NCBI GenBank assembly: GCA_037439485.1
Contig: JBBIVY010000025.1
Location: 1 to 36,142 of the forward strand
DNA from: Planctomycetota bacterium
Lineage (GTDB): Bacteria; Planctomycetota; DG-23; DATKVD01
Length of the DNA: 36,142 bases
Direction: 5' to 3'
Part shown: positions 521-23,146 of the stretch, in pieces
How positions within the stretch are numbered: position 1 is the first letter of the stretch
Layout: each line of letters begins with the position of its first letter
Program-made: the position numbers and the translations under genes
Notes under the pieces: model-generated
What the model saw: the letters and a program-made list of their open reading frames with translations, nothing else
Database searches by the model: none
Told to the model about the DNA's origin: nothing

Positions 521-890
521 GTACATGTGGCTGTTGTGTCTACCGAAAAGTCCATCCGTCGTCTTGAAAAGCGGTGAGAATCGGCGTGACGGCTGTGCGG
601 TTCTTATGGGTTCGAGGGCAGATTGGAGCCGGCATTGAGGTGGTTGGGCGAGTGAGCGCAGGAGATCATCCGGCTGAGGGTGCTGGACATTCCCGCCGGG
701 GGGACGTCGATCCAAATCATGAAGAACGTCTACAGCGATGACCTGCCCCCACTCTTTGTGCCAGAGTGAGTGTTACTTTTCCCTCTCGCGCCTCCGGCGC
801 CGGGGGGCGAGACACTCCCGCCGGACGGAGCCGATGAGTCGCTCGACGAATGCGTTCTGCCAGGGCGACCGCCAGGCCGTAACCACCTCT

Positions 891-1937
891 TCAATGCCCA
901 TGTGCCTGATACGCCGCGACGCGATCTCGCCGGCGGCTTTGGTTGTGGACGGCCTTGCGGAGCGTGAGGAGCACCTCGCGGAAGATGAGGTTGCGGCGCT
1001 CGACGGACCAGACGTGGAAGGGAAGGACGCACCCGCAGCGCGAGCAGTCGGCGCCGGGGCCCATCATGCAGGGGCGCTTGACGGCGCCGTCCGGGCCGAA
1101 GGCGTAGGCCCGTGCGGCGTAGCGGCAGCTCCTCGTAACGGACGGCGCCACGGCGGACTTCATCAGCCGCAGTTCGTCCACGGGATTGATGATGAATCCC
1201 TCGTAGCGGTCCTTGAGGCGGATGAGCCGGTCGATGATCCTGTCGCGGAGTTGCCACCCCGGCCAGAGGGCGTCATCTCCCTTGATGGGCGTGTAGAACT
1301 GGAAGAGGAACCCCTTGACGTGCGTCGGGCGCCACTCCTCAAGAAGCGCCGGAATGCAGTCGTGGTTCTCTTTGCTGACGCACATCGCGGCCACGATCTT
1401 GAGCTGCGGGGCGTCGTTGATGTTCTTCTTGATGCGCTCGTAGAGCGAGCGGTTTCCCCTCATGCGCTCGTAGTAATCGATCGTGCCGTCGACCGACACG
1501 TAGAAGTTCGCGTCGCGCCAGTCGGGCAGCGGAAGCGAGCCGTTCGTGGCGATGAGGTTGCTCTTGAAGCGCGGCATCAGCCGCTCGATAAGTTCGCGCC
1601 GAAGGAGCGGCTCGCCGCCGATCCAACTGCACTGGTAGAACGGGAAGCCCGCCTCCTTGAGCCGGTCGAAGTGCGCGACCCATTCATCGTCCGTCAATTC
1701 CCGGCGATACCCCTGCGCGGTGAAGTAGCAGTGCTTGCAGTTCAAGTTGCACCGGCAGGTGATGTCGACGGAGCCGAAGAGGCCCGGTTGCCCGGCCTTG
1801 CGGATGAGCGCGGCCATGTCGGCCATGCGGAAGATGAAATGCGCGGCGTTCAGGCCGAGCAGCTTTCTCGTCGCCGAGAAGAGTTTGGGCCGAAGTCCGC
1901 GGCTGCCGCCGATGGTGGTTTCGATGGTCCGCGTCAT
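891..1937 (-). CDS. Radical SAM protein with a C-terminal Cys-rich SPASM/twitch-like auxiliary cluster domain
   Basis: CxxxCxxC motif (CNLNCKHC) near the N-terminus. GGEPLL motif. C-terminal CRYAA...RPCMMGPGADCSRCGC cysteine cluster. Overlaps the upstream permease gene by 4 bp (ATGA). Confidence 0.8.
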   Translation of the reverse strand: MTRTIETTIGGSRGLRPKLFSATRKLLGLNAAHFIFRMADMAALIRKAGQPGLFGSVDITCRCNLNCKHCYFTAQGYRRELTDDEWVAHFDRLKEAGFPFYQCSWIGGEPLLRRELIERLMPRFKSNLIATNGSLPLPDWRDANFYVSVDGTIDYYERMRGNRSLYERIKKNINDAPQLKIVAAMCVSKENHDCIPALLEEWRPTHVKGFLFQFYTPIKGDDALWPGWQLRDRIIDRLIRLKDRYEGFIINPVDELRLMKSAVAPSVTRSCRYAARAYAFGPDGAVKRPCMMGPGADCSRCGCVLPFHVWSVERRNLIFREVLLTLRKAVHNQSRRRDRVAAYQAHGH

Positions 1938-3178
1938 GGCTCACCGAGAATGAGCGCCGGGTCCTGCCGGGCGGCGAGCACCGCCGGGGGCCACGAGGCG
2001 AACGCGGCGAGCGCCGGGGCGACGGCGAGGATGATCGCGAGCGTTGCGAACGGCACGCGCACAGGCGCCCCCGCGACGGTGAGTCCGGCGGCGATCCCCG
2101 CCGCGGCGCCGAGGAGCCCCGTCAGCGCGGAGCGGGTGAGGAAGACGCCGATGATCCCCGCGGAACGCATTCCGAGCGCCCGGAGAATGCCGATCTCGCT
2201 CCGGCGGTCGCGGACGTTTTGGAAGGCGAGGATGGCGATCCACGCCGCGGCGCCGAGGATGGAGACGGGGACGAGTATCGCGATCAGCTTTTCGCGTCCG
2301 GCGCGAAGCGCCTCGCGCTCCTTCGCGGCGGCGGCGAGCGTTTCGTCGGCGTGTTCGTGCGCGCGTTCGCGGGCCTCGGCGCGGGTGACGGCCTGGGAGG
2401 CGAATTCGATCACCTGCGTATCGGGCAGCGCGCGCTCGATCTCCTTGCGGATCGTGGCAAGCCGCGGCCCCTCGCACTCGCAACTGATCGCCATGATCGC
2501 GTTGATGACCCCGGGCTTGTCCAGAAGGGCCTGCGCCTCGGGGAGGAATATCCACGCGGTGATGTCGTCCTTCGTGCCGCGCTCGGCGTTCGTCTTCGAG
2601 ACCTTGAACGACCGCCCGAGCAGCGTCACGTTGTCGCCCGGCTTGAGCGCGAGCGGCTGCCAGAGTTCGCTCCCCAGGACGATAGTCCCCGCACCCACCG
2701 GCGAAAGGAGCGGCGGGCGCTTGTCCCCCGCAAAGACCGGCACCTCGCCGCGCGTGCCGACGAGAAGGATCGTGCGAGCCTGCTCGGTCCACTTCACCTT
2801 CTGCTCGAGGATGGGCAGCATGTGGTTGATCGTCATCACCTTCGAGCGGGCAAGGCGCTGGGCATAATCCTCCGGCATCGTCTTCGCGGCGAAGTCGTCG
2901 GCGTAGAGATCGGCGAGCTTCTGGTCTTTCGGCAGGATGAGGACGTTGAAGCCGAGTTTCAGCGTGATCTTGCGGTAGTCGTCTTCGAGCTTGTCGAGGC
3001 CCTTCTTCTCCTCGGCCGCCTTGTCGGCGAGGATTCGCCGCGTATGCGCGTCGTAGGCGCTGAGGAGCCCCGTCGAACCCACGAGCACGCCCACCGCCAC
3101 GGCCGCCGCAAGGGCGGCCAGGGCGAAGTTGAGCTTCCGCCAGGCGATTTCTTTCAGGACGAGCGACAATCCGCGCAT
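1934..3178 (-). CDS. FtsX-family ABC-transporter permease, MacB/DevC-like. One N-terminal TM, a large periplasmic domain with a coiled coil, and a C-terminal 3-TM FtsX domain.
   Basis: Start re-assigned to the internal ATG (MRGLSLVLKEIAWRKL...) with a GAGG RBS. The track's upstream extension is Arg/Ser-rich low-complexity. C-terminal IGILRALGMRSAGIIGVFL..GLLGAAAGIAAGL matches the FtsX permease pattern. No ATPase gene is adjacent. Confidence 0.75.
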   Translation of the reverse strand: MRGLSLVLKEIAWRKLNFALAALAAAVAVGVLVGSTGLLSAYDAHTRRILADKAAEEKKGLDKLEDDYRKITLKLGFNVLILPKDQKLADLYADDFAAKTMPEDYAQRLARSKVMTINHMLPILEQKVKWTEQARTILLVGTRGEVPVFAGDKRPPLLSPVGAGTIVLGSELWQPLALKPGDNVTLLGRSFKVSKTNAERGTKDDITAWIFLPEAQALLDKPGVINAIMAISCECEGPRLATIRKEIERALPDTQVIEFASQAVTRAEARERAHEHADETLAAAAKEREALRAGREKLIAILVPVSILGAAAWIAILAFQNVRDRRSEIGILRALGMRSAGIIGVFLTRSALTGLLGAAAGIAAGLTVAGAPVRVPFATLAIILAVAPALAAFASWPPAVLAARQDPALILGEP

Positions 3179-3182
3179 CGGA

Positions 3183-4295
3183 TTACCTCGATTCCGGCCG
3201 GTGCCTGAAGACGATGACGAGCACGACGATTGCCGCGACGAGCACGATGCCGGCGGTCGTGATGAAGAGCGTGAGGCCCATGAAGTAAGTGCGCTGGACT
3301 TTTCCTGCGCGGTGTGCCGGCGGCGCCTTGTGAGGCTGGGACTGCGCCTGTGCCGCCGTGCCGAGGCCGGTGAGCGCGGGAGGGTCCTGCGGCTTGACCC
3401 ACTTCGCATCGGGCAGGGCGGTCCAGTTGACGGACATCAGCAGGTCGACGCCGGGATTCTGGTCCTTGACGATGCACGAGCACGAGCCGCAGAGAAACTG
3501 GCCGATCTGGCCGAGCATCGACGCGTTGACGTCGGTGGGGGGCAGGGTGCAGAGGAGCCGTCCCTGCCCGAAAACCGTGCCGAGGCCCGGCTTGTCGTCG
3601 GGGACGTTATTCTGTGCGCCCAGGAGCATCGCGGCGAAGACCTTCTCCGCCGGGTCGCTGCGCGCGAGCCGCACGACCCCCAGCGATATCTTGAGGTTGG
3701 GCTTCTCGGCCCCTTCCTGGACGTCCGCCGGGTCCACCTCGGGAAGTTCCAGCGTCTTCGTCAGTTTCTCGATCTCGCCCTTGACGAGCTTCTCCAGCGC
3801 GTCGTCGGCCGCCGTGTCGCGGCTGCCGAGGATGACCCAGACGCAGACGTCGCCGGAGAGGAGCCGCCTGCCGATCTCTCGGCGGGCGGGGGAGTCGAGC
3901 ACGGCCTTCGCGTTCTCGCGGGTGAGCGGCCCGGACCATGCCTCCGGCTTCTTATCGTAGACCTCGGGCCACTCGACGATGATCAGGGGCGTGTCGGCGG
4001 ACGCGCGGGCTTTCAGATCCTTCAGCTTAGCGGCATCTTCTCCGGCCGGGGGCTTCTCGACGTCGATGTCCTCGACCGTGACGTTCGACGGCACGTTGGC
4101 GTCCGTCGAACAGGCTTTCATCCACGCCACGGTCTTCGCGTCGTCGGGCGACAGCGGGCCCTTGTGGACGATGGTGACCGGGTAGATCTCGGCCGGCCAC
4201 CGTTCGAGGGCGTACCGATACACCGGCACGCTGCACGCCGACAGCGCGGCGGACGCCAGGATACCGGCGACGAGCGCGGCGAGTTTCGTCTTCAT
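3183..4295 (-). CDS. Lipoprotein of unknown function, 370 aa, with a lipobox and a C-terminal transmembrane anchor
   Basis: MKTKLAALVAGILASAALSAC lipobox. Hydrophobic C-terminus TLFITTAGIVLVAAIVVLVIVF. The stop lies 4 nt from the permease start, so the two are co-transcribed. Confidence 0.65.
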   Translation of the reverse strand: MKTKLAALVAGILASAALSACSVPVYRYALERWPAEIYPVTIVHKGPLSPDDAKTVAWMKACSTDANVPSNVTVEDIDVEKPPAGEDAAKLKDLKARASADTPLIIVEWPEVYDKKPEAWSGPLTRENAKAVLDSPARREIGRRLLSGDVCVWVILGSRDTAADDALEKLVKGEIEKLTKTLELPEVDPADVQEGAEKPNLKISLGVVRLARSDPAEKVFAAMLLGAQNNVPDDKPGLGTVFGQGRLLCTLPPTDVNASMLGQIGQFLCGSCSCIVKDQNPGVDLLMSVNWTALPDAKWVKPQDPPALTGLGTAAQAQSQPHKAPPAHRAGKVQRTYFMGLTLFITTAGIVLVAAIVVLVIVFRHRPESR

Positions 4296-4330
4296 GTCGA
4301 GGCTCCGGGGGCTCGATGATTTCCAGGGTA

Positions 4331-4359
4331 AGTCTACCCGCCGACGGCGATGATTTCAA
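4331..4359 (-). promoter_or_regulatory. Candidate sigma70-like promoter for the lipoprotein-FtsX-rSAM operon. -35 TTGAAA, 17-nt spacer, -10 TAGACT, read on the minus strand.
   Basis: Found by reading the reverse complement of 4296-4437. A short inverted repeat (cccgcc/ggcggg) overlaps the spacer. Confidence 0.3.
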
Positions 4360-4379
4360 CTGGCGGGATTAAAGACCTC

Positions 4380-4405
4380 GGGCGCCCCGATGGGATGGGG
4401 CGCCC
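4380..4405 (-). terminator. GC-rich perfect hairpin downstream of the flotillin gene. 9-bp stem gggcgcccc/ggggcgccc with an 8-nt loop. Possible terminator or attenuator.
   Basis: Perfect inverted repeat. On the minus strand it is followed by TCTTTAA, which is only weakly U-rich. Confidence 0.35.
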
Positions 4406-4437
4406 GGTGAGTGGTGAGGATTGCGGTTCGTCACGCC

Positions 4438-6174
4438 TTACTTCTTCTTGGCCGGCGAGGTCTCCTCGACGTCGGCCGGCTTGGCGGCGGCAGGCGCGGC
4501 GGAGATGAGCTCGTTGAGCTGAGAGGGGTCGATGCCGACCTTCTTGAGGATGCCGTCGACGTCGATGCCGAGCGTCTTGAGCTTGGCGAGCACGCCGAAG
4601 AGCACGTCCGGCACGGTCATCGCGAAACGCTGCACGGCGCCGCCGCCTTCGCGGGAGCCGCCGCCCATGTCGATGATCTGGAGCTTGTCGATGTTGCCCA
4701 GGCCCGTGCCGATGCCCTTGCCGAGTTCGGCGAGCGGCATGGTGGCCTGGTTGAGGGCGACGCCGATCTCCTGGATGATGGCGGGCGCCTTTTCGAGGAC
4801 CATCTGGATCATCGCGGCGCGGTCGAGGGCCTTATAAGCCTCGGCCTTCTTGAGGATACCGGTCGCCTCGGCGACGAGCTTGGCCTCGATGGCCGCGCCC
4901 TCGGCGAGACCCTTCGCGCGAATGGCCGAGCCTTCCGCCTCGCCGCGAGCCTTGATGGCCGCGGCCTCGCCCTCGCCGGCCGCCTGGCGCTTGGCGCGGT
5001 CGGCGTTCGCCTCGCCCTCGCCCTCCGCGGAGAGCCGGACCTTCTCGGCCTCGGCGCGCGCGATCTGCCCGTCGCGATCGCCCTCCGCGCGGATGCGCAC
5101 GGCCTTCGCCTCGCCCTCCGCCTTGGCCACCGCGGCGGACGCTTCTCCTTCCGCGGCGATGACGACCGCGGACTTCTGCGCCTCGGCGGGGCGGATCTGG
5201 GTGGCGACGAGCTCCTTCTCCTTGCGCTCGGCTTCCTTCATCGACACCGCGATGCGCGCCTCGGTTTCGACTTCCTGGATCTTCACCTCCTGCTTCTTGA
5301 CCTCCTGCATCGCCACGGCGTTCGCCCGCGGGCCGGCCTGCGAGGCGATGGCCTGCTGCTCGGCCACGGAGGCGTTGTAGGTCGCCTTCTTCATGTCGAG
5401 GTCGCGCTGCGCGGCGGCGATCTGCGCGTCGTTGTCAAGGCGGGTCTGCTCTCCCTCTCGGCGGGCGTTCGAGGCCTTGATCGTGGCGTCGCGCTGGGCC
5501 TCGGCCTGGCCGATGCTGGCGTCGCGGATGACCTCGGCCGTGCGCTTCTTGCCCAGGGCCTCGATGTAGCCCAGGGCGTCGGAGATGCGGTTCACCACGA
5601 TGAGGTCGCAGCGGATGCCGATGCGGCTCAGGTCCATCGCGGCGTTCTGCGTGACCTGCTCGGTGATCTTCTCGCGCTTCTGGACGATCTCCTCGACGCG
5701 CAACGTGCCGATGATCTGGCGGAGCTGGCCTTCGAGGATGTCGTGAATCTGGCGGGTGATCTCGTCGATGCCGTAGCCGAGGAATCGCTCGATGGCGGCG
5801 GCCAGAAGCTCCGGCTCGCTGGAAATCTTGACGTTGCCGACTGCCTCGACGGTGATGAGGACGCCGTCGAGGTTGGGGGTGTTCTCGATCTTGAGCTGGA
5901 TCTGGATGAGGTTAAGGCTGATCATGCGGTATTCTTCGAGCAGCGGCATGATGAACGTGGCGCCGCCGGTGACGATGCGGTAGCCGACGATCTTGCCGTC
6001 GGCGGTGCGGCGCTTGCGGCCGTAGACGACCATGACGACGTTGGGGGGGACCTTCTTGTAGCGTTTGGCCACGGCCCACAGGGCGCCCATGACGGCGAGG
6101 GCGATGGCCAGGATAACGACGATGACCCAGGGGTCCGTGAACACGTCACCGACCGACGCGAGCAGCATCCACAT
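4438..6174 (-). CDS. floT: Flotillin (SPFH/band-7 domain, FloT/YuaG-like) with a C-terminal Glu/Ala-repeat coiled-coil region
   Basis: N-terminal membrane hairpin followed by an SPFH domain (VVMVVYGRK...GATFIMPLLEEYRMISLN...). Long EA-repeat region AEGEAKAVRIRAEGD... Family-level recognition only. Confidence 0.85.
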   Translation of the reverse strand: MWMLLASVGDVFTDPWVIVVILAIALAVMGALWAVAKRYKKVPPNVVMVVYGRKRRTADGKIVGYRIVTGGATFIMPLLEEYRMISLNLIQIQLKIENTPNLDGVLITVEAVGNVKISSEPELLAAAIERFLGYGIDEITRQIHDILEGQLRQIIGTLRVEEIVQKREKITEQVTQNAAMDLSRIGIRCDLIVVNRISDALGYIEALGKKRTAEVIRDASIGQAEAQRDATIKASNARREGEQTRLDNDAQIAAAQRDLDMKKATYNASVAEQQAIASQAGPRANAVAMQEVKKQEVKIQEVETEARIAVSMKEAERKEKELVATQIRPAEAQKSAVVIAAEGEASAAVAKAEGEAKAVRIRAEGDRDGQIARAEAEKVRLSAEGEGEANADRAKRQAAGEGEAAAIKARGEAEGSAIRAKGLAEGAAIEAKLVAEATGILKKAEAYKALDRAAMIQMVLEKAPAIIQEIGVALNQATMPLAELGKGIGTGLGNIDKLQIIDMGGGSREGGGAVQRFAMTVPDVLFGVLAKLKTLGIDVDGILKKVGIDPSQLNELISAAPAAAKPADVEETSPAKKK

Positions 6175-6225
6175 GGCGCGCCCTCCGAATTGCGGGAAAA
6201 AGTATGGCGGTTTCTCGGTTCATGC

Positions 6226-6789
6226 CTAAAGCGGCTTGACGGTGGCCATGGCGCCGGCCATCGAGACGATCTTGACGGGCCGTCCTTCGGGAATCGTGGC
6301 GCCGTCCTGGGACACGGCGAAAATGGTCTTGAGCTGTCCCTTGACGACGACGGATATCTCACCCGTCCCGTCTGCGGGGATGGTGCTGGCGACGCGGCCT
6401 TCGAGGTCGGCGTAATCCTCCGACGTGGCCATGGAGGATGCCTGCTCGCGGTAGAACATCGCCATGAAGGCGTAGGCGAGGCCGCCGAGCACGAGGCCGA
6501 GTCCGATGCCGCACAGGCTCGACAGGGCGGGGCCAAGATTCCAGGCGTGCGTGGCGATGAGGCCCATGCCGCTGAAGCCGAGGAAGAAGAGCGAGAGCAC
6601 CCGCGCGCTGAAGAGGCTGGGCATGCCGGCGCCGATGTCGTGCCCGCCGATCTCGGTCGAGACGTCGTGGCTGACGTCGTGGTCGTGGCCGAAGATGAAC
6701 GAGAAGATCGAGAAAACCACCGAGAAGATGAACAGCACGAGGTACACGGTGGCCAGGTAAAGCCCGGCGATCAGGAAGAATGCGATCAT
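6226..6789 (-). CDS. NfeD-like membrane protein (YuaF/YqiJ-like flotillin partner) with a C-terminal OB-fold domain
   Basis: Start re-assigned to the internal ATG (MIAFFLIAGLYL...). It overlaps the upstream gene as ATGA. N-terminal TM helices and a C-terminal GEISVVVKGQLKTIFAVSQDGATIPEGRPVKIV beta-barrel motif. A His/Asp-rich loop HDHDVSHDVSTEIGGHD is present. Confidence 0.65.
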   Translation of the reverse strand: MIAFFLIAGLYLATVYLVLFIFSVVFSIFSFIFGHDHDVSHDVSTEIGGHDIGAGMPSLFSARVLSLFFLGFSGMGLIATHAWNLGPALSSLCGIGLGLVLGGLAYAFMAMFYREQASSMATSEDYADLEGRVASTIPADGTGEISVVVKGQLKTIFAVSQDGATIPEGRPVKIVSMAGAMATVKPL

Positions 6790-7388
6790 GGCTTGGCGCT
6801 CCCGGTATCGGCAAACTCGACCTTGCGATAGGACACGGCCCCGTCGGCGACGGAGGCGAAGTAAAGCTCGACGAGGCACTGGAACTCGGCGGTGAGGCTG
6901 CGGCCGACTTTGCGCAACTGCTCGATCTGGTGCTCGGCGATGGTCTTGCCCGTGGCGAGGTGCGCGAGTGTGGACAGGGCGTTCGAGTCCGTGTAGGCCC
7001 CGCAGCCGGAATGGGCGACGCAGATGATGCGCTTGATGTTCTTCGATTCGACCATGGCCTCGACGGCCCAGCGCGCCACCTTCTCGTGCTTGGGCAGCAC
7101 GTCGGGCAGGGCCAGCCACTGCACGCCGCCCGGCACGGCCATGAGTTGCCAGCGCGAGACCTTGAGCCCCTCCTCGACGAAGAGGAGGGTGTGCGGGAGG
7201 TAGCGCGAGTCGCCGCAGGTGATGACGAGGCACTCGGGCCGGTCGTCCGCGAAGGGGAGCGAACTTTTGTAGACCGGCTCGCCCTCGACCGGCGGGGCCC
7301 CGGCGAGATGCTCCTTCATCACCTGGGCGGCCTTGTCCTTGAGGCGCTGCGCGACCCCGGAAAGATACTCGGACGCTTTTTCTGCCAT
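6786..7388 (-). CDS. Beta-class carbonic-anhydrase-like protein, first gene of the flotillin operon
   Basis: Cys-x-Asp-x-Arg (ITCGDSRYLP) and His-x-x-Cys (VAHSGCGAY) signatures typical of beta-CAs. GGGGGA RBS 6 nt upstream of the ATG. Confidence 0.5.
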   Translation of the reverse strand: MAEKASEYLSGVAQRLKDKAAQVMKEHLAGAPPVEGEPVYKSSLPFADDRPECLVITCGDSRYLPHTLLFVEEGLKVSRWQLMAVPGGVQWLALPDVLPKHEKVARWAVEAMVESKNIKRIICVAHSGCGAYTDSNALSTLAHLATGKTIAEHQIEQLRKVGRSLTAEFQCLVELYFASVADGAVSYRKVEFADTGSAKP

Positions 7389-10153: not shown

Positions 10154-10200
10154 ACTGGTGCGCGGTCTGGTCTCAACGTGTCGTGCCGGGGGGACAGCCG

Positions 10201-12165
10201 ATGAGAAGATTCGGCCTGGCGCAGTGCCGCGACTTCATCCGCAGAGCACTGGGATCGAGGTTCGGAGGACTTTACGTCTTCGGCGTCCTCTTTCTCGGCG
10301 CCTCGCTGCTCCTGCGTTTCGCCCTGTGCCTCCGTTCCCTCGCCCTCATCGACACCACGCCTTCCGTCCTGGCGCACATGTTCCTCGTGGGCATGATCTA
10401 CGACGCGGTCACGTTCTTCTACTGCGCGCTTCCGGCGGCGATCTTCCTGCTTGTCGTGCCGGATCGCATCTACCGCTCGAAGGCGACGCGAGTCATCGTC
10501 AACACGACTTACTTCCTGGCGGTCTTCGCGCTGGTCTTCGACGTCATCGCGGAGTGGCTCTTCTGGGGCGAGTTCGGCACGCGCTACAACTTCGTCTCCG
10601 TCGACTACGTGGCCTACGTTCACCAGTTTACCGGCAACCTGGTCCAGGCGCTGCCGATGCCGATCCTCATCGGCATACTCATCGCCGGGGTGACGATCGT
10701 CTTCTTCGCGACGCGGCCGCTGCTCGTCCGCACGTTCGACTCCGTCAGCTCCTTCCGCCAGCGCCTGCGGCCGGCCGCCGTGTTTGCGCTGGCGCCGGCG
10801 GTGTCCGTCTTCTTCGTCAACCTCTCGCTCGCGGAGATCAACGGCAACCATTACAACAACGAGCTTTCGAAGAACGGGGTATACAGCTTCGCTGCGGCCA
10901 TCCGCTATAACGGCGCCACGTGGAGCGCGGACTACCGGACCATTTCCTCGCCGGAGGCGTGGGTGCGGCTCGAACGGAGGCTCGAATCGCAGGGGGCGCG
11001 CTTCCCCGCGGGCGCCGGAGCGCGGGACCCGCTGCATGAGGCGGGGCCCGTCGGCCCCGAGACGCCCCATAACGTCATCGTCGTCGTGATGGAGAGCATG
11101 GGCGCCGATTTCGTCGGGGCCTGTGGCGCGACGGGGGGCCTGACGCCGAACCTCGACCGGTTGGCGGCGGAAGGAGTATTCTTCGCGGACTTCTACGCGA
11201 CGGGCACGCGCACCGACCGGGGCCTGGAGGCGGTGATCGAGTCGCTGCCGCCGACGCCGGGGCGCTGCACGATCAAGCGGGAGATGACGCCCGACCCGAA
11301 CGCCCTCGGCGTGATTCTGCGTCAGCGCGGCTATCGGCCGGTGTTTGTCCTGGGCGGCGACCCGACCTTCGACAACATGGGCAATTTCTTCGTCGCCAAC
11401 GGCTTCGATGTCGTCGGGCGCGACCGGTTCCGGTCGTCGGAGGTGACCTGCGAGACGGCGTGGGGCGTGTGCGACGGAGACCTCTTCGGCCGCATCGTGC
11501 GCGAGTGCGACGAGATGCACGCGAAGGGCGCGCGCTTCTGCGTCGCGTCGCTGACCTGCTCCAACCACCAGCCGTTCGTGGCGCCCGGCATCGCGCCGGA
11601 GAACCGGACGCGCGAGGCGGTGGTGAAGTATTCCGACGCCTGTGTCGGCGAGTTCATCCGCCAGGCGCAGTCGAAGCCCTGGTTCAACGACACGCTCTTC
11701 GTCTTCGTGGCCGACCACCAGGCCAACCGCGCGTGCCTCGCGGACATCGCGCCCGAGATGTTCCGCATCCCCGCCATTGTCTATGCCCCGAAGCTCGTCG
11801 CGCCGAGGCGCGTGGAAGGGATCGCCGGCCAGATGGACCTGATGCCCACGGTGTTGGGGCTCATGAAGTTCCGCTACCAGAGCCGGTTCTTCGGGCACGA
11901 CGTGTTGGCGCAGTCGGGCGGGGGATGCGCGGCGGTGTCCAACTACCAGGACTTCGGATGGGTTACGGGCGACCGCTTCGTGCTGATGCGCGCCGAGAAG
12001 CGCGCGAACGTCTATCGCGTCGACGCCGCAGGCGAGTTGCGCGGTTGCCCGCAGGACCCCGAGCTTATCCTCGACGCCACGTCGCTCTACCAGACCGCTG
12101 CGGAATACCTCGACAGCCGGTTCATCCTCCCCGGCGCCCCCTCCGCCCACGCCTCGCGGCGGTAG
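10201..12165 (+). CDS. LTA-synthase/sulfatase-family membrane phosphotransferase (LtaS/MdoB/OpgB-like). N-terminal multi-TM domain and C-terminal sulfatase domain.
   Basis: ATG at 10201 preceded by GGGGGGA. The track's GTG at 10183 is an alternative start. 5 or more N-terminal TM helices followed by HNVIVVVMESMGADF / GTRTDRGLEAV sulfatase-type motifs. Confidence 0.8.
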   Translation: MRRFGLAQCRDFIRRALGSRFGGLYVFGVLFLGASLLLRFALCLRSLALIDTTPSVLAHMFLVGMIYDAVTFFYCALPAAIFLLVVPDRIYRSKATRVIVNTTYFLAVFALVFDVIAEWLFWGEFGTRYNFVSVDYVAYVHQFTGNLVQALPMPILIGILIAGVTIVFFATRPLLVRTFDSVSSFRQRLRPAAVFALAPAVSVFFVNLSLAEINGNHYNNELSKNGVYSFAAAIRYNGATWSADYRTISSPEAWVRLERRLESQGARFPAGAGARDPLHEAGPVGPETPHNVIVVVMESMGADFVGACGATGGLTPNLDRLAAEGVFFADFYATGTRTDRGLEAVIESLPPTPGRCTIKREMTPDPNALGVILRQRGYRPVFVLGGDPTFDNMGNFFVANGFDVVGRDRFRSSEVTCETAWGVCDGDLFGRIVRECDEMHAKGARFCVASLTCSNHQPFVAPGIAPENRTREAVVKYSDACVGEFIRQAQSKPWFNDTLFVFVADHQANRACLADIAPEMFRIPAIVYAPKLVAPRRVEGIAGQMDLMPTVLGLMKFRYQSRFFGHDVLAQSGGGCAAVSNYQDFGWVTGDRFVLMRAEKRANVYRVDAAGELRGCPQDPELILDATSLYQTAAEYLDSRFILPGAPSAHASRR

Positions 12166-13420: not shown

Positions 13421-13650
13421 GCGCCGGGTTCCTGTTTCGATTGTGAGCGGGACAAGACAGGGGCGGAGTCTACCCGATAGCGGGGCGGGCGTCAATGCCC
13501 GGGCCTCGGCTTCAGCTTGGGTTAAGGTTACGGTTGGTATACGGGACAATGTCTCCCGGCGATTCGCATGCCTTCGCGGATAACCCTTTACAGGGCCGCC
13601 CGGGAGTGCTAACCTCTTGGCGCGTCTTGTCTTCTGAAAGGCTGACGGAA

Positions 13651-15282
13651 ATGGGGGATATGTCGGGAGCAGCGGAGGAGCGGGGCATCTGGCGTGCGCG
13701 GTTCGCCGTGCCGGTGCTGCTGGCGTTGACGCTTGTCGGGTTCTTCTGGGGGATTGCCTCTTTGCCCCTGATGGACCCCGAGGAGCCGAGGTGCGCGCTG
13801 ATCGTCCGGGAGATGATCGACTCGGGCAACTGGACCCAGATGCGCCTCCACGACGAGGCTTACTACGACAAGCCGGCGCCGTATTTCTGGCTGACCGCCT
13901 TCGCCACCCGCCTTACCGGCAGCGCCGAACTGGGCGGCCGCGGCGTCTCGGCCCTGTGCGGCATCGCCGCGGTGTTTCTGGCGTATTTCATGGCCCGGCG
14001 CGTGTTCGGCGCTCGGGCGGCGCTCTTCGCGGGGGTGATGCTTGCGACGTGCGGGGAGTTTGCCTTCATCGCGCGGTGGTACCGCATGGAGATGCCGACG
14101 GCCCTCTGCATGTGGGGGGCGCTCGCGTGCTTCTGGTGCATGGAGGACGAGTTCCAGAAGACGGGCGTGATGCGCCGGGCGTGGTGGTACGGATTCTACG
14201 CCTGCGGGGCGCTCGCGACGCTTTTCAAGGGGCCGGTGGGCATCGGGTTGCCGGGCCTCGTCGTCGTGGTCTACCTGCTCCTGAGCGGGAGGCCGAAGCG
14301 CGTCTTCGAGCCGCTGCACGTCAAGGGCATTGTCCTCTTCTTTGCCTTGGCGGCGCCCTGGTATATCCTCATGTGCGCGCGCGACTCGAACTACGCCTAC
14401 GAATTCTTCGTCAAGCAGAACCTCACGCGCTACGGCGGCAAGGCCAAGGACGAGATTTTCTACGTGACGTATCTGCCCGTGCTGATTGCCGGGGCGGCGC
14501 CCTGGTCGATGTGGCTCCTCGTGTCGCTCGTCAAGATGTGGCCGCGGTCATGGAAGGCCCGGATGCAGCAGCCCGGCCTCCTGTTCCTCTGGGCGATGCT
14601 CCTCGTCCCGTTCGTCTTCTTTCAACTCAGCGGGACGAAGCTCATTCACTACATCCTGCCGGTCTTCCTGCCGGCGGCCGTGCTGATGGGCGGCATGGCG
14701 GAGCGGTTCCTGGCGGCGGAGAGGACGAAGGCCTGGGAGTCCGTGGGGCTGGTGGCGGCGTGCTTCCTGATGATCGCGGGGCCGCTGGCGCTTTCCATCC
14801 TGTCCCACGATATCGACCTGGCGCTCCTTGTGCCGATTTCGCTGGGAATTCTCGGGGGGGATGCGGTGTGTGTGCTCCTCGGCAGCGGCCGGCGTGTCCA
14901 GGCGCTCGCCGTGACCTGCGGCATGGCGGCGCTCATGTATTTCTTCATCATCGCCGACGACGCGCTGCACGTCTATGACGACCGCTGCGCGAAGGCCCTG
15001 GGAGTGCTCGTGCCTGCCGAGGACCGGATGACGGCGCGGTTCATCGCCTATGAGAAGAACTCGCTTTCGTTCGAATACTACGCGAAGGTGCGGGCGGAGC
15101 GGATTATCGAGTCCGACAACGTGTCGCTCATCAAGGCCTTCGACAGCACGGGGCGCATCTACGCGCTCCTGGACGACGACGAAGACCTGGCCCTCGTGAA
15201 GAAGGCCCTGGGCGACCGCGTCTACCTCATCGGCACGCACAGGAATTCGTACCTTGTGTCGAACCGTCCGCCGAGGAAGTGA
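13651..15282 (+). CDS. GT-C glycosyltransferase of the ArnT/PMT family (GT83/GT39-like): undecaprenyl-phosphate-sugar:acceptor transferase
   Basis: Start chosen at MGDMSGAAEE with an AAAGG motif upstream; the track's longer N-terminus is unconvincing. ...PLMDPEEPRCALIVREMIDSGNWT...DKPAPYFWL... is the characteristic ArnT/PMT N-terminal loop. Many TM helices. Confidence 0.8.
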   Translation: MGDMSGAAEERGIWRARFAVPVLLALTLVGFFWGIASLPLMDPEEPRCALIVREMIDSGNWTQMRLHDEAYYDKPAPYFWLTAFATRLTGSAELGGRGVSALCGIAAVFLAYFMARRVFGARAALFAGVMLATCGEFAFIARWYRMEMPTALCMWGALACFWCMEDEFQKTGVMRRAWWYGFYACGALATLFKGPVGIGLPGLVVVVYLLLSGRPKRVFEPLHVKGIVLFFALAAPWYILMCARDSNYAYEFFVKQNLTRYGGKAKDEIFYVTYLPVLIAGAAPWSMWLLVSLVKMWPRSWKARMQQPGLLFLWAMLLVPFVFFQLSGTKLIHYILPVFLPAAVLMGGMAERFLAAERTKAWESVGLVAACFLMIAGPLALSILSHDIDLALLVPISLGILGGDAVCVLLGSGRRVQALAVTCGMAALMYFFIIADDALHVYDDRCAKALGVLVPAEDRMTARFIAYEKNSLSFEYYAKVRAERIIESDNVSLIKAFDSTGRIYALLDDDEDLALVKKALGDRVYLIGTHRNSYLVSNRPPRK

Positions 15283-15297
15283 TCGAGGGAGTCGGCG

Positions 15298-16149
15298 ATG
15301 GGCGCTCCGGGCGCGCGACGTGCCGTCATCAACGCGGACGATTTCGGCCTGACGCGAGGCGTCACCGAGGGCATCCTCCGCGCGCACCGCGATGGGATCG
15401 TCACGTCGACGACCGTGATGGCCAACATGCCCTACGCGGCCGAGGCGGTGAGGCGGCTGGGCGAGGCGCCGGGCCTGGGGGTCGGCGTCCACCTCAACGC
15501 GGCGCAGGGAGAGCCGGTCTCGGCCGAGGGCGCGGCGCTCATCAACGCCGACGGCGAGATGGACTGGTTCACGCCGAAACTGGTGAAGCGGTGCCTCCTT
15601 CACCCTCGGCTCATCGGCGTCATCGAGGCGGAGTTCGACGCGCAGATCCGCCTCGTCATCGGCTGGGGCGTCCGGCCGACGCACCTCGACAGCCACCGCC
15701 ACTTGCACGCGTTCACGCCCATCTTCCGGCGCGTCGCGCGGCTGGCGGAGAAGTACGACATTCCGTTCGTCCGGCTGCCGTACGAGCGCCTTCGCGGGCG
15801 CGGCTGGCCGGAGGCCGCGGCGCGCGGCAAGCGGACGCGCTGGCTTTTGAACCGCTTCAGCGCGCTCAACCGGCGCTTCAAGTCGCGCCTGCACCCGACG
15901 TCCGGCACGTGGGGCATCGCCCACACCGGGGAGATCGACGCGGCCTGGCTCATCCGCGCGGCGGCGGCGCTGCCGGAGGGAGTCACGGAGATCATGACGC
16001 ACCCGGGCCTCGCCGACGACCTGACCGAGAAGCTGACGCGCCTGACGATGAGCCGCAAGCACGAACTCGACGCCCTCACGGACCCGGAGGTCCGGCGGGC
16101 GTTTGAGGACCATCACGTGGAGTTCATACACTATGGACAACTCCGCTGA
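15298..16149 (+). CDS. ChbG/YdjC-family carbohydrate deacetylase (HpnK/LgmC-like)
   Basis: VINADDFGLTRGVTEGI...HLDSHRHLH motifs typical of the YdjC/ChbG family. GGAG RBS. Confidence 0.8.
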   Translation: MGAPGARRAVINADDFGLTRGVTEGILRAHRDGIVTSTTVMANMPYAAEAVRRLGEAPGLGVGVHLNAAQGEPVSAEGAALINADGEMDWFTPKLVKRCLLHPRLIGVIEAEFDAQIRLVIGWGVRPTHLDSHRHLHAFTPIFRRVARLAEKYDIPFVRLPYERLRGRGWPEAAARGKRTRWLLNRFSALNRRFKSRLHPTSGTWGIAHTGEIDAAWLIRAAAALPEGVTEIMTHPGLADDLTEKLTRLTMSRKHELDALTDPEVRRAFEDHHVEFIHYGQLR

Positions 16150-17116
16150 GAACAAGGTCAAGTACAGCGTCGTTGTTCCGTTCTACAACGAGGAAGCCGT
16201 CGCCGAGAAGCTGGTGACGCTCATCGCCTCGGTGATGCGCCGCATCGGCGACACGCACGAGATCGTCGCCGTCGACGACGGCAGCCGCGACCGCACGGGC
16301 GAGATACTGGCGAAGCTGGCCGCGGCCGAGCCGTGCGTCGTCTACGTTGAGCTTCGGCGCAACTTCGGCCAGACGACGGCGCTGCAGGCGGGCTTCGACC
16401 ACGCGTCGGGAGAGGTGGTCATCGCGATGGACGGCGACTTGCAGCACGATCCGGAGGAAATCCCGCTCTTCATCGAGAAGATCAACGAGGGCTACGACCT
16501 TGTCAGCGGCTGGCGCGTGAAGCGCGGGGACAACCCGCTGACGAGGCGGCTGCCGTCGCGCGTGGCGAACTGGCTTCTGGCGAAGGCGAGCGGGGTGAGC
16601 CTGCACGACTTCGGCGGGACGTTCAAGGCCTACCGGCGCGAGATCCTCAAGGACGTTCGGCTCTACGGCGACATGCACCGCTTCGTCCCAGCGGTCTGCG
16701 CCAGGCTCGGGGCGAAGATGTGCGAGGTGCCCATCACCGTGGCCCCGCGGCGGGCCGGCAAGAGCAACTACGGCATCGGCCGCACGCTGCGCGTCGCGCT
16801 CGACATCCTGTCGATGCGCTTCGTCACGGGCTACCTGACGCGGCCTCTCCACTTCTTCGGCGGCTGGGGACTCGCCTTCGGCGCCCTCGGCGGAGTCATC
16901 CTCGGCTACGGATTCGTGCGCAAGATCGTTCAGTGGAACTCGTTCCACGTCTTCGCCCAGCACGGGCCGCTCATGGCCGTGGGGCTCGTGTTCCTCATGG
17001 CCTCGATGGTGTTCCTCGCCACCGGTCTCATCGGCGAGATGCTCTCGCGCATTTACTTCGAGGCCACCAGCGCCCGGACGTACGCCGTCCGCAGGATCGT
17101 CCGTAGGGACCCGTAG
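16133..17116 (+). CDS. GT2 polyprenyl-phosphate glycosyltransferase (ArnC/DPM1/GtrB-like) with a C-terminal 2-TM tail
   Basis: Start chosen at MDNSAENKVKYSVVVPFYNEE; it overlaps the end of the ChbG gene. DDGSRD / DGDLQHDP DXD-type motifs. C-terminal TM helices. Confidence 0.85.
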   Translation: MDNSAENKVKYSVVVPFYNEEAVAEKLVTLIASVMRRIGDTHEIVAVDDGSRDRTGEILAKLAAAEPCVVYVELRRNFGQTTALQAGFDHASGEVVIAMDGDLQHDPEEIPLFIEKINEGYDLVSGWRVKRGDNPLTRRLPSRVANWLLAKASGVSLHDFGGTFKAYRREILKDVRLYGDMHRFVPAVCARLGAKMCEVPITVAPRRAGKSNYGIGRTLRVALDILSMRFVTGYLTRPLHFFGGWGLAFGALGGVILGYGFVRKIVQWNSFHVFAQHGPLMAVGLVFLMASMVFLATGLIGEMLSRIYFEATSARTYAVRRIVRRDP

Positions 17117-18096: not shown

Positions 18097-20295
18097 CTAC
18101 TGCCGCGGATGGAACAGGTCCTGGAACCATTCCTTCACGGGCGTCCAGAGGTCGAGGTCGTCCTCGTTCATGCTGCGGAGTATCTGGTAGAGGGCGCCGT
18201 AATCGTCGGTCCAGAGGAGAATCTGGCGCGAGGTCGACGGCCAGGGCGTGGAGTAGTCGCGGACGGTGGCGCTATTCAGGAACTCCTCGTTGGCGGTGAC
18301 GAGCACCCACTCCGAAATCAGGCAGCCGGGGGCCAGGTCTTTTTCCGGCGGATCGACCAGCACGGCCTCGCGCCCGAACTCCGCGGCGAGCCCCCGCACC
18401 ACGGGCCGAAGGTCGAGGTAGCGGTTCGAGATATGCACCGCGAGGATGCCGTCGGGTTTAAGCCGCCGGAAGTAATAGGCCCCGCATTCCTTCGTCAAGA
18501 GGTGCATCGGGATGGCGTCGCTCGAGAACGCGTCGACGGCGAGGACGTCATACTTTCGGGCGTTCTCGCATACCTCCCGCTCGATGGAAATCCGCGCGTC
18601 GCCCATCACCAGCTTCATCGTCGCCGGGCTCTCCCGGCGATAGGTGAAGTACTTCGCCGAAAGCCGCTCCACCTCCGGGTTGATCTCATAGAAGGTGATG
18701 TTGTCGCCATGCCGGCCGAATGCCGCGACCGTGCCGGTCCCCAGGCCGATGACGCCGATGTTGAGCGTGTTGTCGGCGGCAAAGCGTCTCGGGTTGTAGT
18801 TGAGCGCGAGGGCGACCCCGCTGGTCGGGCCGTAGTACGACGTGGGCTCCCGCCGCCACGGCAGGTCCTTGAATTGGAACCCGTGGTTCGTGCTGCCGTG
18901 GGAAAGCTGCAGCGCCATAAGCCCCGGCAGCTTCCTGTAATCGGGCTCGGTCTCGCGGACCTTGAGCACGCCGTAGAAGTTGCGCGAGCGATCGACGGCG
19001 TCGCCGGAGGATTTCTTGATGTTCGCGCCGAGGAGGGTGGCCATCCCGATGAAGAGCCCTCCCAGGATCACCCAGGCCCAGACCGGGCGGAGTCCGTGGA
19101 GCCGGGACTTCGGATCGCGCATGTGACAGATGAGCGCGAGGAGCACCGCGGCGGCCAGGGAGATGTGGAATTCCCAGTAGTTGGTGAAGATCGCGGGCGC
19201 CACCAGGACGACGAGCACCCCGCCGAGCGCGCCGCCCGCGGCGATGAGCAGGTAATAGAGCGTCAACCGCTCGGCCGGCGGCCTCAGCCGGGAGAGTTCC
19301 CCGTGACAGGCCATGCAGATGAAGAAGAGCGCGACGCCGACGTTGATGATCTGGATCGGCAGTTTCTGCGGTATGTTCCGGTTGAGCATGTAGAGCACCA
19401 GGCCCACCGCCCCGAAGAGCAGCAGGAGGCCCACGAAGTTGCGGAGGTACCACCGCGGGCTGTCGAAGGCGATGATGAAGGTGATCAGGTAGACGGCCAG
19501 CGGCATGATCCACAGGAACGGCACGACGGCCATGTCCTGGCAAAGGTAGTTGGTCGTCGCCAGAAGCGCCACGGACCCGGCGCAGGGAAGCAGCAGCCAG
19601 AGGAGGATGTCGCCCCGGCGGACCTTCTCCGGGGGCGGCGGGGCGTCAGGCTTGCCTTGGGCTTGCTTATTGCCGTCGACGACCTCGGTGATGATCTGCG
19701 CCTCGCCGGCGCGCGATTTCGCGTACCGGAGCGCGAGCCACGCGCAGAGGAGGGCGAAGACGCCGTAGCCGACGGACCACGAGAACGCCTGGGCGCGCAG
19801 GCGGAAGTGCGGCTCGACCGCGAACGGATAGCTGAGGAGCGCCAGGAGCGAGCCGAGGTTGGAGAGGGCATACAGCCGATAGGGCGAGCGGCCCGGGTGC
19901 GAGCGCGCAAACCAGTCCTGCAGGAGCGGCCCCGTCGTCGACAGCACGAAGTACGGCGCCCCGACCGTCGCCGTCAGGAGCAGCAGTATCCGCCAGACGG
20001 GCATGGAGGAATCGCACGGCTTCCAGAGTTCGGCCGAGGGGATGATGGGAAGCGTCAGGAGGCTCGCGGTGAGGACCGCGACGTGGAGCCACGCCCGTGT
20101 CTTCGGATGCTTGATGCGCGTCGTGGCATGGGCGTAGGCGTAGCCGACGAGGAGCAGCACCTGGAAGAAGAGCATGCACGCCGTCCACACCGCCGGCCCG
20201 CCGCCGAACCAGGGCAGGATGAACTTGCCGATGAGCGGCTGCACCTGGAAAAGCAGGAAGGCGCTGAGGAAGATCGTGATGGCGTAGGCGGCCAC
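18097..20295 (-). CDS. Fused polytopic membrane domain / spermidine-synthase-like domain protein
   Basis: N-terminal half with about 12 TM helices. C-terminal IGVIGLGTGTVAAF...DVLAVDAFSSDAIPMHL Rossmann-type spermidine synthase fold. Confidence 0.8.
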   Translation of the reverse strand: MAAYAITIFLSAFLLFQVQPLIGKFILPWFGGGPAVWTACMLFFQVLLLVGYAYAHATTRIKHPKTRAWLHVAVLTASLLTLPIIPSAELWKPCDSSMPVWRILLLLTATVGAPYFVLSTTGPLLQDWFARSHPGRSPYRLYALSNLGSLLALLSYPFAVEPHFRLRAQAFSWSVGYGVFALLCAWLALRYAKSRAGEAQIITEVVDGNKQAQGKPDAPPPPEKVRRGDILLWLLLPCAGSVALLATTNYLCQDMAVVPFLWIMPLAVYLITFIIAFDSPRWYLRNFVGLLLLFGAVGLVLYMLNRNIPQKLPIQIINVGVALFFICMACHGELSRLRPPAERLTLYYLLIAAGGALGGVLVVLVAPAIFTNYWEFHISLAAAVLLALICHMRDPKSRLHGLRPVWAWVILGGLFIGMATLLGANIKKSSGDAVDRSRNFYGVLKVRETEPDYRKLPGLMALQLSHGSTNHGFQFKDLPWRREPTSYYGPTSGVALALNYNPRRFAADNTLNIGVIGLGTGTVAAFGRHGDNITFYEINPEVERLSAKYFTYRRESPATMKLVMGDARISIEREVCENARKYDVLAVDAFSSDAIPMHLLTKECGAYYFRRLKPDGILAVHISNRYLDLRPVVRGLAAEFGREAVLVDPPEKDLAPGCLISEWVLVTANEEFLNSATVRDYSTPWPSTSRQILLWTDDYGALYQILRSMNEDDLDLWTPVKEWFQDLFHPRQ

Positions 20296-22914: not shown

Positions 22915-23107
22915 CGCGCGTTTGCGGTGCGTCTCGTCCGCCAGCGGCTGCGTCGGCAGCGGAAGCTGACTGGAGCTGTCGCGGCTTGGGGCATCGTCGG
23001 ACAAGGGTTTCCCGCCTGAATTGCGTGAATGGAAGCGGAGAATGTTACCGACGCACGCGGCGGGATGCAACACAAAAGAGTTCGCCCCTGTAATCGTCGC
23101 AGGCGTT

Positions 23108-23116
23108 TGCTATACT
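23108..23116 (+). promoter_or_regulatory. Extended -10 promoter element TGcTATACT upstream of the carbohydrate operon
   Basis: gtttGCTATACTatt: a TGn + TATACT hexamer about 30 nt upstream of the GTG start. No good -35 box, which is consistent with an extended -10 promoter. Confidence 0.3.
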
Positions 23117-23146
23117 ATTATGCGGACCAGGTTCCAGGAGGCCAAC

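Follow-up and report, generated by a model that had tools for sequence, protein, structure and literature searches.

What does a stand-alone radical enzyme act on when no peptide gene accompanies it? This question was raised by a gene at positions 891-1937 (minus strand) in a DNA stretch of 36,142 nucleotides from a Planctomycetota bacterium (assembly GCA_037439485.1, contig JBBIVY010000025.1). The whole stretch is called the window here. The gene encodes a radical S-adenosylmethionine (SAM) enzyme of 348 amino acids (aa). A preliminary description, made from the sequence alone, had pointed to its cysteine motifs and had speculated about a hopanoid- or isoprenoid-type substrate. We found that the window protein is a member of an unnamed, rare family inside the SPASM/twitch clade. 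Our tentative proposal, which is drawn from the relatives, is that it may be a stand-alone radical SAM enzyme whose substrate is not a peptide and belongs to the synthesis of envelope lipids or glycolipids.

The radical SAM gene and its protein

The open reading frame (ORF) is intact and starts with ATG. Its GC content at third codon positions (GC3) was 0.89, like that of other real genes of this window with 65 % GC. The Pfam model Radical_SAM (PF04055) matched the protein with E 6.8e-15 and 56.1 bits against a cut-off of 29.5, and it was the sole Pfam match. Among 5.8 billion clustered proteins, 183 homologues were found. Two alignments were used: a narrow family with 34 of the 183 homologues, 42-72 % identical to the window protein, and an extended family with 39 members at 23-36 % identity. 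Nine cysteines (C63, C67, C70, C103, C271, C290, C298, C301, C303) were invariant in the narrow family. Because of the 183 homologues and the nine cysteines kept across 34 of them, this is a real conserved gene and no chance motif. Both termini aligned with those of a homologue of 71 % identity (P0002), and the gene is therefore complete. The radical SAM assignment of the preliminary description, with its CNLNCKHC motif and cysteine-rich C-terminus, was thus confirmed.

The motifs were located on the minus strand of the window. CNLNCKHC (1728-1751), the radical SAM [4Fe-4S] cluster motif C63-x3-C67-x2-C70, was invariant in both alignments. GGEP (1608-1619; G107-G108-E109-P110) is the SAM-binding 'GGE' motif; G107, G108 and P110 were invariant and E109 was kept in at least 90 % of the extended family. 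C103 (codon at 1629-1631) lies four residues before GGEP in the same beta-strand, which spans 102-106 in the structural model; C103 was invariant in the narrow family only. The auxiliary-cluster (twitch-like) motif C271-x12-G284-x5-C290-x7-C298-x2-C301-x-C303 (1029-1127) was invariant throughout the narrow family. The C-terminal cysteine-rich stretch CRYAA...RPCMMGPGADCSRCGC holds its five cysteines.

An AlphaFold2 model based on the family alignment had a mean predicted local distance difference test (pLDDT) score of 90.4. It started with three N-terminal helices, which were followed by a radical SAM core with a partial TIM barrel. The C-terminal part consisted of a small beta element (278-286), a helix (305-314) and a long basic C-terminal helix. 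The protein therefore has both a GGE-type SAM-binding motif and a partial TIM-barrel core. Net basic N- and C-termini were kept throughout the family.

The C-terminal module

The preliminary description had compared the C-terminus with SPASM/twitch auxiliary domains. The relation to twitch domains held, while the canonical SPASM domain did not fit. In the extended family, C271, C290 and C301 were invariant and C298 was kept in at least 90 %, while C103 and C303 were not kept. For a profile-profile comparison, we used a radical SAM family that is positive for Pfam SPASM (PF13186) and was built around a 460-aa radical SAM protein. In hhalign, the narrow family aligned with it at a probability of 99 %. 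C271, G284 and C290 fell on C330, G344 and C349, which form the first SPASM hairpin. The hairpin motif of the partner family is C-x13-G-x4-C, and that of the window family is C-x12-G-x5-C. The top structural matches were SkfB and BlsE. These results agree with a twitch domain, that is, a truncated SPASM module homologous to the first hairpin. However, the seven-cysteine SPASM signature with two auxiliary clusters (CX9-15GX4C - gap - CX2CX5CX3C - gap - C) was not found, and only five C-terminal cysteines were present. Neither the whole protein nor its last 100 aa matched Pfam SPASM at E ≤ 1. These 100 aa had no Pfam match of any kind at E ≤ 1, and the C-terminal 142 aa had no NCBIfam match at E ≤ 10. 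The isolated N-terminal piece gave no informative match in Pfam or NCBIfam.

C271, C290, C298 and C301 were kept down to 23 % identity, which is compatible with one auxiliary Fe-S cluster. From this pattern we infer that these four are the probable ligands of one auxiliary [4Fe-4S] cluster. The C-terminal domain, as judged from the sequence, is a shortened SPASM/twitch-like module and not a canonical two-cluster SPASM domain.

Foldseek gave SkfB, BlsE, SuiB, CteB and anSME as the nearest structures to the model, at 14-20 % identity. When the PDB was searched by single sequence and by profile, the matches covered the radical SAM core alone. The twitch enzymes (SkfB, BtrN, SpeY, BlsE-type) share with the window protein a radical SAM core with a shortened SPASM module after it, four conserved cysteines that suffice for one auxiliary cluster, and the hairpin aligned by hhalign. 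The substrates of several of them are sugars or aminocyclitols, not peptides. However, the window protein was only 16-20 % identical to these enzymes. Its family has a spacing of its own (C-x18-C-x7-C-x2-C-x-C, with G-x5-C in place of G-x4-C), the additional family-specific C103 and C303, and basic helices that extend both termini. The NCBIfam model N_Twi_rSAM was absent from the matches listed for the window protein; it matched 29 of the 39 extended-family members (best E 1e-15). The SPASM-domain enzymes (anSME, PqqE, AlbA, NirJ/AhbC/AhbD; PF13186/TIGR04085) belong to the same clade, and the first half of their signature is homologous. In contrast to their seven C-terminal cysteines, the window protein has five, and the second half has shrunk to CX2CXC.

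Curated models and the hopanoid proposal

Beyond the general Radical_SAM match, no curated model of Pfam or NCBIfam claimed the window protein. The best NCBIfam match was TIGR03961, the PTO1314 family (uncharacterised, archaeal), with 48 bits against a cut-off of 306. It alone among the NCBIfam matches extended over the greater part of the protein, with residues 59-290 aligned to model positions 29-263, and the length was similar. It also led in the extended family, where it matched 35 of 39 members (best E 1.6e-21). However, this model stops short of the CX2CXC end of the window protein. NirJ, AhbC, MoaA, PqqE, SkfB, Tes, viperin and all maturases of ribosomally synthesized and post-translationally modified peptides (RiPPs) gave 23-44 bits against cut-offs of 180-850. 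Among these, NirJ (44 bits) and AhbC (39 bits) were weak whole-protein matches, and for the SPASM-domain equivalogs the scores were at most one tenth of each cut-off.

Individual candidates were rejected in the same way. MoaA (TIGR02666/TIGR02668) gave 29 bits against a cut-off of 325, and all cut-offs of the MoaA models are above 280. The anSME model TIGR03942 was not in the 17 families that matched the window protein at E ≤ 1e-5, and its best E in the extended family was 1.7e-12. The PqqE model missed its cut-off. QueE, MqnC/E and CofG/H gave no match, and the models of RNA-modifying enzymes (RlmN, MiaB, TYW1, Elp3-type) gave none above noise. A confident match to a housekeeping radical SAM subfamily, which the preliminary description had named as the outcome that would contradict it, did not occur.

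These searches also bear on the hopanoid- or isoprenoid-type substrate, where an adenosyl radical would be added to an olefin. HpnH, the adenosylhopane synthase, is a stand-alone radical SAM enzyme of similar length, and it acts on a lipid. The N-terminal helices ahead of the 'RCNLxC' motif, which we take to resemble those of HpnH, were also counted for such a substrate. Hopanoids are made by Planctomycetota and Geobacter, and one distant relative carries a fused ABC1/UbiB lipid-kinase-like domain. However, the HpnH model TIGR03470 was never listed as a match, whether the query was the full-length protein, its N- and C-terminal pieces (E ≤ 10) or the 39 extended-family members, and DUF3463 (PF11946) had no match in the window protein. 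No squalene-hopene cyclase, HpnG or other hopanoid gene was found among the window ORFs scanned with Pfam, and none was found beside any homologue in about 95 related loci. The YdjC-family gene at 15298-16149 ('ChbG/HpnK'), which had been taken as a clue to hopanoids, stayed under both cut-offs (HpnK 163 bits against 232.6, ChbG 162 bits against 227). It lies in a trio (13495-17116, plus strand) between the genes of an ArnT-like GT-C glycosyltransferase (PMT_2; 145 bits to ArnT) and an ArnC-like family 2 glycosyltransferase (GT2; 187 bits). We take this row to be the layout of polyprenyl-phosphate amino-sugar systems that decorate lipid A (Francisella, Bordetella), not of hopanoid synthesis. 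An HpnH-like reaction is disfavoured, and we regard it as highly improbable.

Precursor peptides and gene neighbours of relatives

About 100 loci with homologues were gathered, and all their ORFs were clustered. Relaxed six-frame scans of 521-890 and 4296-4437 in the window gave ORFs of 20-70 aa mechanically, and none of these was conserved beside any homologue in the gathered loci. A 42-aa ORF directly after the radical SAM stop (773-901, minus strand) was rejected as a precursor peptide. It is the remnant of an IS3/IS481-type transposase C-terminus, and its sequence 'SPWQNAFVERLIGSVRRECL' matches transpos_IS3 positions 300-333 (E 7e-5) and IS481 (E 3e-4). The absence of a precursor-peptide gene nearby, as first described, was thus verified. 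Across about 17 independent contexts of the family, we found no conserved small ORF and no conserved protein partner, and a substrate that is non-peptidic or encoded elsewhere was therefore the better reading, as had been proposed.

Synteny around the radical SAM gene was not kept in Planctomycetota. The homologues nearest to the window protein, at 71 % and 60 % identity, were flanked by quite different genes. Only a SurA-like chaperone, a 123-aa protein and a 189-aa secreted protein adjoined the gene repeatedly in this phylum, and all three were confined to Brocadiaceae. In these loci (L020-L076, for example L022 7634-11023), the order was SurA-like peptidyl-prolyl isomerase, 123-aa protein, 189-aa secreted protein and radical SAM enzyme. 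Neither the 123-aa nor the 189-aa protein had a family match. Hidden Markov models (HMMs) of both were run against all gathered loci, and since nothing was found outside Brocadiaceae, they were rejected as general partners. An all-against-all comparison of the immediate hypothetical neighbours from different lineages revealed no common family. The neighbours elsewhere were HPRT (Scalinduaceae), guaB-guaA, MetRS/ThrRS, MoxR/DUF58, TatC or nothing recognisable. In addition, sugar-redox genes were seen near the radical SAM gene (GFO_IDH twice in locus L005, SDR in L001, GMC oxidoreductase in L012), and in a metagenome-assembled genome (MAG) of Schekmanbacteria a B12-binding radical SAM gene adjoins the family member.

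The Brocadiaceae loci bear on whether the enzyme is a maturase of a peptide or protein that is encoded elsewhere, of the RiPP type or the anSME/QhpD type. Peptide maturases (SkfB, SuiB, CteB, ChlB, anSME) were the nearest matches among solved structures. The 189-aa signal-peptide protein would be a candidate substrate, for its gene and that of the 123-aa protein precede the radical SAM gene in more than 30 Brocadiaceae loci, with a stop/start overlap between the 189-aa gene and the radical SAM gene. Secreted and lipoprotein neighbours are also present in the window. However, the other lineages were without a common small ORF or partner protein. The models of RiPP-maturase equivalogs stayed at 33 bits or less against cut-offs of 300-850, anSME was likewise far under its cut-off, and the C-terminal cysteines number five, not seven. 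No RRE (RiPP recognition element) domain was found in the window protein, and in the model the N-terminal 50 residues are predicted to form three helices without the beta-sheet of the RRE winged helix. We consider a maturase distinctly unlikely.

Distribution of the family

A full HMMER scan of 1.84 billion representatives gave 191 clusters at E ≤ 1e-30. With one genome for each GTDB species, relatives were found in 501 of 185,579 species. Among the best 80 of these 501 species were Brocadia, Jettenia, Kuenenia, Scalindua, Anammoxibacter, Loosdrechtia, Subterrananammoxibius, Wunengus and many other Planctomycetota MAGs. Desulfuromonadaceae, Geobacter and Desulfobacterales followed Planctomycetota in the ranking. 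The family was thus present in every sampled anammox genus, in other Planctomycetota and in some Deltaproteobacteria (among them Desulfuromonadia), and protein matches also came from Acidobacteriota, Chlorobiales and Schekmanbacteria. A scan of metagenome contigs with the single protein gave three distant matches only (27-28 %) and no close relatives.

The orthologue of Kuenenia stuttgartiensis is CAJ71488/Q1PW79. Its annotation says only 'moaA/nifB/pqqE/nirJ family' for cofactor biosynthesis, and our literature search found no paper that mentions it. Fusions were observed in distant members of the extended family (P0298, P0306, P0317, P0369, P0357). They carry PilZ, which is a receptor of cyclic di-GMP, a response-regulator receiver or, in one case, the ABC1/UbiB kinase-like domain. 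This suggests that some extended-family relatives are under second-messenger control.

The Desulfuromonadia operon

In Desulfuromonadia, the orthologue opens a conserved operon (L006/L085, L010, L077, L078, L094, L095). These orthologues were 43-50 % identical to the window protein and had all nine cysteines, compared with at most 36 % identity in the extended family. Therefore, they belong to the same subfamily as the window protein. The operon begins with the radical SAM gene, a NodB-type deacetylase with DUF3473, a PpgS-like GT2, the 460-aa SPASM radical SAM enzyme, an LpxL/PIM-type acyltransferase and an acyl carrier protein (ACP). It continues with B12-binding radical SAM enzymes, a FabD-like acyltransferase, a 4HBT thioesterase, another B12-binding radical SAM enzyme, a ketoreductase and a ketosynthase. 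MlaA/VacJ (L095), PagL (L006) or a SAM methyltransferase lies at the edges. The last B12-binding radical SAM enzyme passed the model TIGR04072 ('lipid biosynthesis B12-binding/radical SAM protein') with 397.6 bits against a cut-off of 360. Single operons (L010 10001-20954, L095 120-15853, L006 5095-16960) contained as many as five radical SAM genes, of which three or four encode B12-binding enzymes. In other Deltaproteobacteria, the pair of a 460-515-aa radical SAM enzyme and the family member remains alone. The best 120 matches listed for the 460-aa partner were all from Desulfuromonadales, and the cultured species Trichlorobacter lovleyi, Geobacter pickeringii and G. hydrogenophilus also have this partner.

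The gene content of this operon overlaps that of kuste3335-3352 in K. stuttgartiensis. That cluster holds genes for a VacJ-like protein, a polysaccharide deacetylase, a glycosyltransferase, SAM methylases, radical SAM enzymes, ACP, FabF and FabG, and similar clusters in Desulfotalea, Geobacter and Pelobacter were described by Rattray et al. in 2009 (PMC2649909, PMC4790861). Ladderane biosynthesis is still called unresolved in recent reviews (PMC13459092, PMC10139942). The family studied here resembles a component of such clusters of 'unusual' type II fatty acid synthesis (FASII), because it occurs in all sampled anammox genera and its Desulfuromonadia members are the first gene of such a cluster. 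However, in the window and in the anammox loci the radical SAM gene lies outside any cluster of this type, and it is not among the genes that the ladderane studies listed or found expressed (PMC2649909, PMC4790861). Since the family is not specific to anammox bacteria, it cannot alone explain ladderanes. No paper on the Geobacter cluster of radical SAM, ACP and B12 genes was found in the literature search.

Proposed function

We propose that SAM would be cleaved reductively to a 5'-deoxyadenosyl radical, which would abstract hydrogen from the substrate. The auxiliary cluster may take up an electron or anchor the substrate, as in BtrN, anSME and MoaA. Judged from the relatives only, the substrate may be an intermediate of cell-envelope lipid or glycolipid synthesis other than a ribosomal peptide. 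This class of substrate was deduced from the Desulfuromonadia operon, which is its sole basis. The occurrence of the family in anammox genera and Desulfuromonadia, the taxa with a cluster of the kuste3335-3352 type, was counted for the lipid link. Within this class, a nucleotide- or polyprenyl-phosphate-linked sugar or amino-sugar head group would be favoured, and an ACP-bound acyl chain would be less likely. The sugar head group is speculative. It was favoured because the radical SAM gene is directly beside the deacetylase and the GT2 in Desulfuromonadia, because several of the nearest structural relatives other than peptide maturases (BlsE, viperin, MoaA) act on sugar nucleosides or nucleotides, and because sugar-redox genes recur nearby in other phyla and purine-nucleotide genes in Planctomycetota. 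The basic termini would be compatible with peripheral membrane or phosphate binding. In the window, the radical SAM gene would have been relocated to a local unit that it shares with the genes of a lipoprotein and an FtsX-type permease.

Several points weigh against this proposal. No lipid gene was linked to the radical SAM gene in the window or in any Planctomycetota locus, where the neighbours were housekeeping or unrelated genes (SurA-like, HPRT, guaBA, MetRS/ThrRS, MoxR). The association comes mainly from one bacterial class, and the functional orthology of the Deltaproteobacteria and Planctomycetota proteins is an assumption. For the source organism, the presence of a cluster was judged from the 36-kb window only. 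The cluster of Deltaproteobacteria and Kuenenia is itself without an assigned product. In addition, the basic termini would suit RNA binding equally.

The purine genes in Planctomycetota could instead point to a housekeeping enzyme similar to MoaA, viperin or QueE, which would modify a free purine nucleotide or a pterin-type precursor and bind it with the auxiliary cluster as MoaA does. HPRT was directly upstream of the radical SAM gene in Scalinduaceae (L027/L033/L035). In L003, guaB-guaA was directly upstream and the radical SAM gene followed after 22 nucleotides. A pair of FTCD_C (cyclodeaminase-like) and Zn-ribbon genes was near it in two separate planctomycete lineages (L003 9099-11322, L008 4124-5411), and PurM was also found near the radical SAM gene in L008 and L003. 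These neighbours in independent lineages could represent either a purine and one-carbon theme or residual gene order. The size and the layout, with an N-terminal cluster and a C-terminal cysteine cluster, are like those of MoaA, changing neighbours are typical of housekeeping genes, and the annotation of CAJ71488 also names cofactor biosynthesis. However, the model scores given above argue against it, and the family, with 191 clusters and 501 species, is far too rare for a general cofactor. The tight operon shared by several Desulfuromonadia genera is of a lipid or glycolipid type, not of a purine type. We judge a nucleotide- or cofactor-modifying enzyme to be unlikely, although it deserves some weight.

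An enzyme that modifies tRNA or rRNA was considered in view of the basic N- and C-terminal extensions, and aminoacyl-tRNA synthetases, NusB, S15 and PNPase lie nearby in some loci. However, the models of RNA-modifying enzymes were negative, the taxonomic spread is narrow for an RNA modification, and the Desulfuromonadia context is a lipid operon. This makes an RNA substrate very unlikely. The envelope lipid or glycolipid remains our tentative choice.

Neighbourhood in the window

The radical SAM gene is the last of a three-gene unit on the minus strand. The first gene (3183-4295) encodes a 370-aa predicted lipoprotein with the lipobox LSAC and a C-terminal transmembrane helix, and it had no Pfam and no NCBIfam match. 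The second (1934-3181) encodes an FtsX/LolCE-type permease, 415 aa from an internal ATG (PF02687, E 3.9e-12; weak MacB_PCD). Its lolCE score was 41 bits, far under the cut-off, and its stop overlaps the radical SAM start (ATGA). The lipoprotein is coupled to this single permease (1934-4295), and no ABC ATPase gene is nearby. On the other side, a 157-aa signal-peptide protein (47-520) is convergent with the radical SAM gene. The permease and the 157-aa secreted protein had been named as the flanks before and this was correct; the lipoprotein is added here.

The flotillin gene had also been used as a clue to the substrate, and this use found no support. A classic NfeD-flotillin pair lies at 4438-7233 (minus strand), in which the NfeD-like gene (6226-7233) precedes the gene of a 578-aa flotillin/SPFH protein (239 bits with the FloT model, whose cut-off is 700). 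Flotillin/NfeD and the FtsX permease were both rejected as conserved context because neither was beside any homologue in the gathered loci. A promoter-like site (4359-4331) was found upstream of the three-gene unit, and a terminator-like hairpin (4390-4378) was found between this unit and the NfeD-flotillin pair, both as consensus matches only. The flotillin gene is apparently transcribed separately from the radical SAM unit.

The first 1 kb of the window had a GC content of 0.58, compared with about 0.65. Together with the transposase remnant, this hints at a past insertion or rearrangement, which may explain the unconserved local gene order. Three large ORFs with coding-type GC3 had zero Pfam matches: 18097-20295 (minus strand, 732 aa), 23021-24943 (plus strand, 640 aa) and 24953-27595 (plus strand, 880 aa). 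A membrane-anchored protein of the sulfatase superfamily (10183-12165, plus strand) was nearest to the phosphoglycerol transferase/LtaS type with 79 bits, far under the cut-off, and it is a candidate for envelope modification.

Significance

Thousands of radical SAM proteins are unassigned, and alone the window protein would be one more of them. It belongs to a compact and rare family that has no curated model and whose auxiliary domain is a distinct minimal version of SPASM/twitch. This family is present in every sampled anammox genus, and in Desulfuromonadia it is part of an unusual fatty-acid/glycolipid cluster, which has figured in the discussion of ladderane biosynthesis since 2009.

A bolder view, which we hold to be doubtful, is that the family is an overlooked and detachable part of the pathway of the kuste3335-3352 type. 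It would then catalyse a new radical reaction in the pathway to an envelope glycolipid, with a lipid- or nucleotide-linked amino sugar or an ACP-bound chain as its substrate, and non-anammox Planctomycetota such as the source organism would make a related lipid. The studies of ladderanes and unusual fatty acid synthesis would have missed it because it lies outside the clusters in anammox genomes.

Cultured and genetically tractable strains of Geobacter and Trichlorobacter carry the 460-aa partner, so they probably carry the whole cluster, and the function would be testable there. If the lipid link is true, the family would add a candidate gene to an open problem of lipid biosynthesis. If it is false, the result would be a cleaner annotation of the family as a twitch-type radical SAM enzyme that is neither HpnH nor a RiPP maturase.

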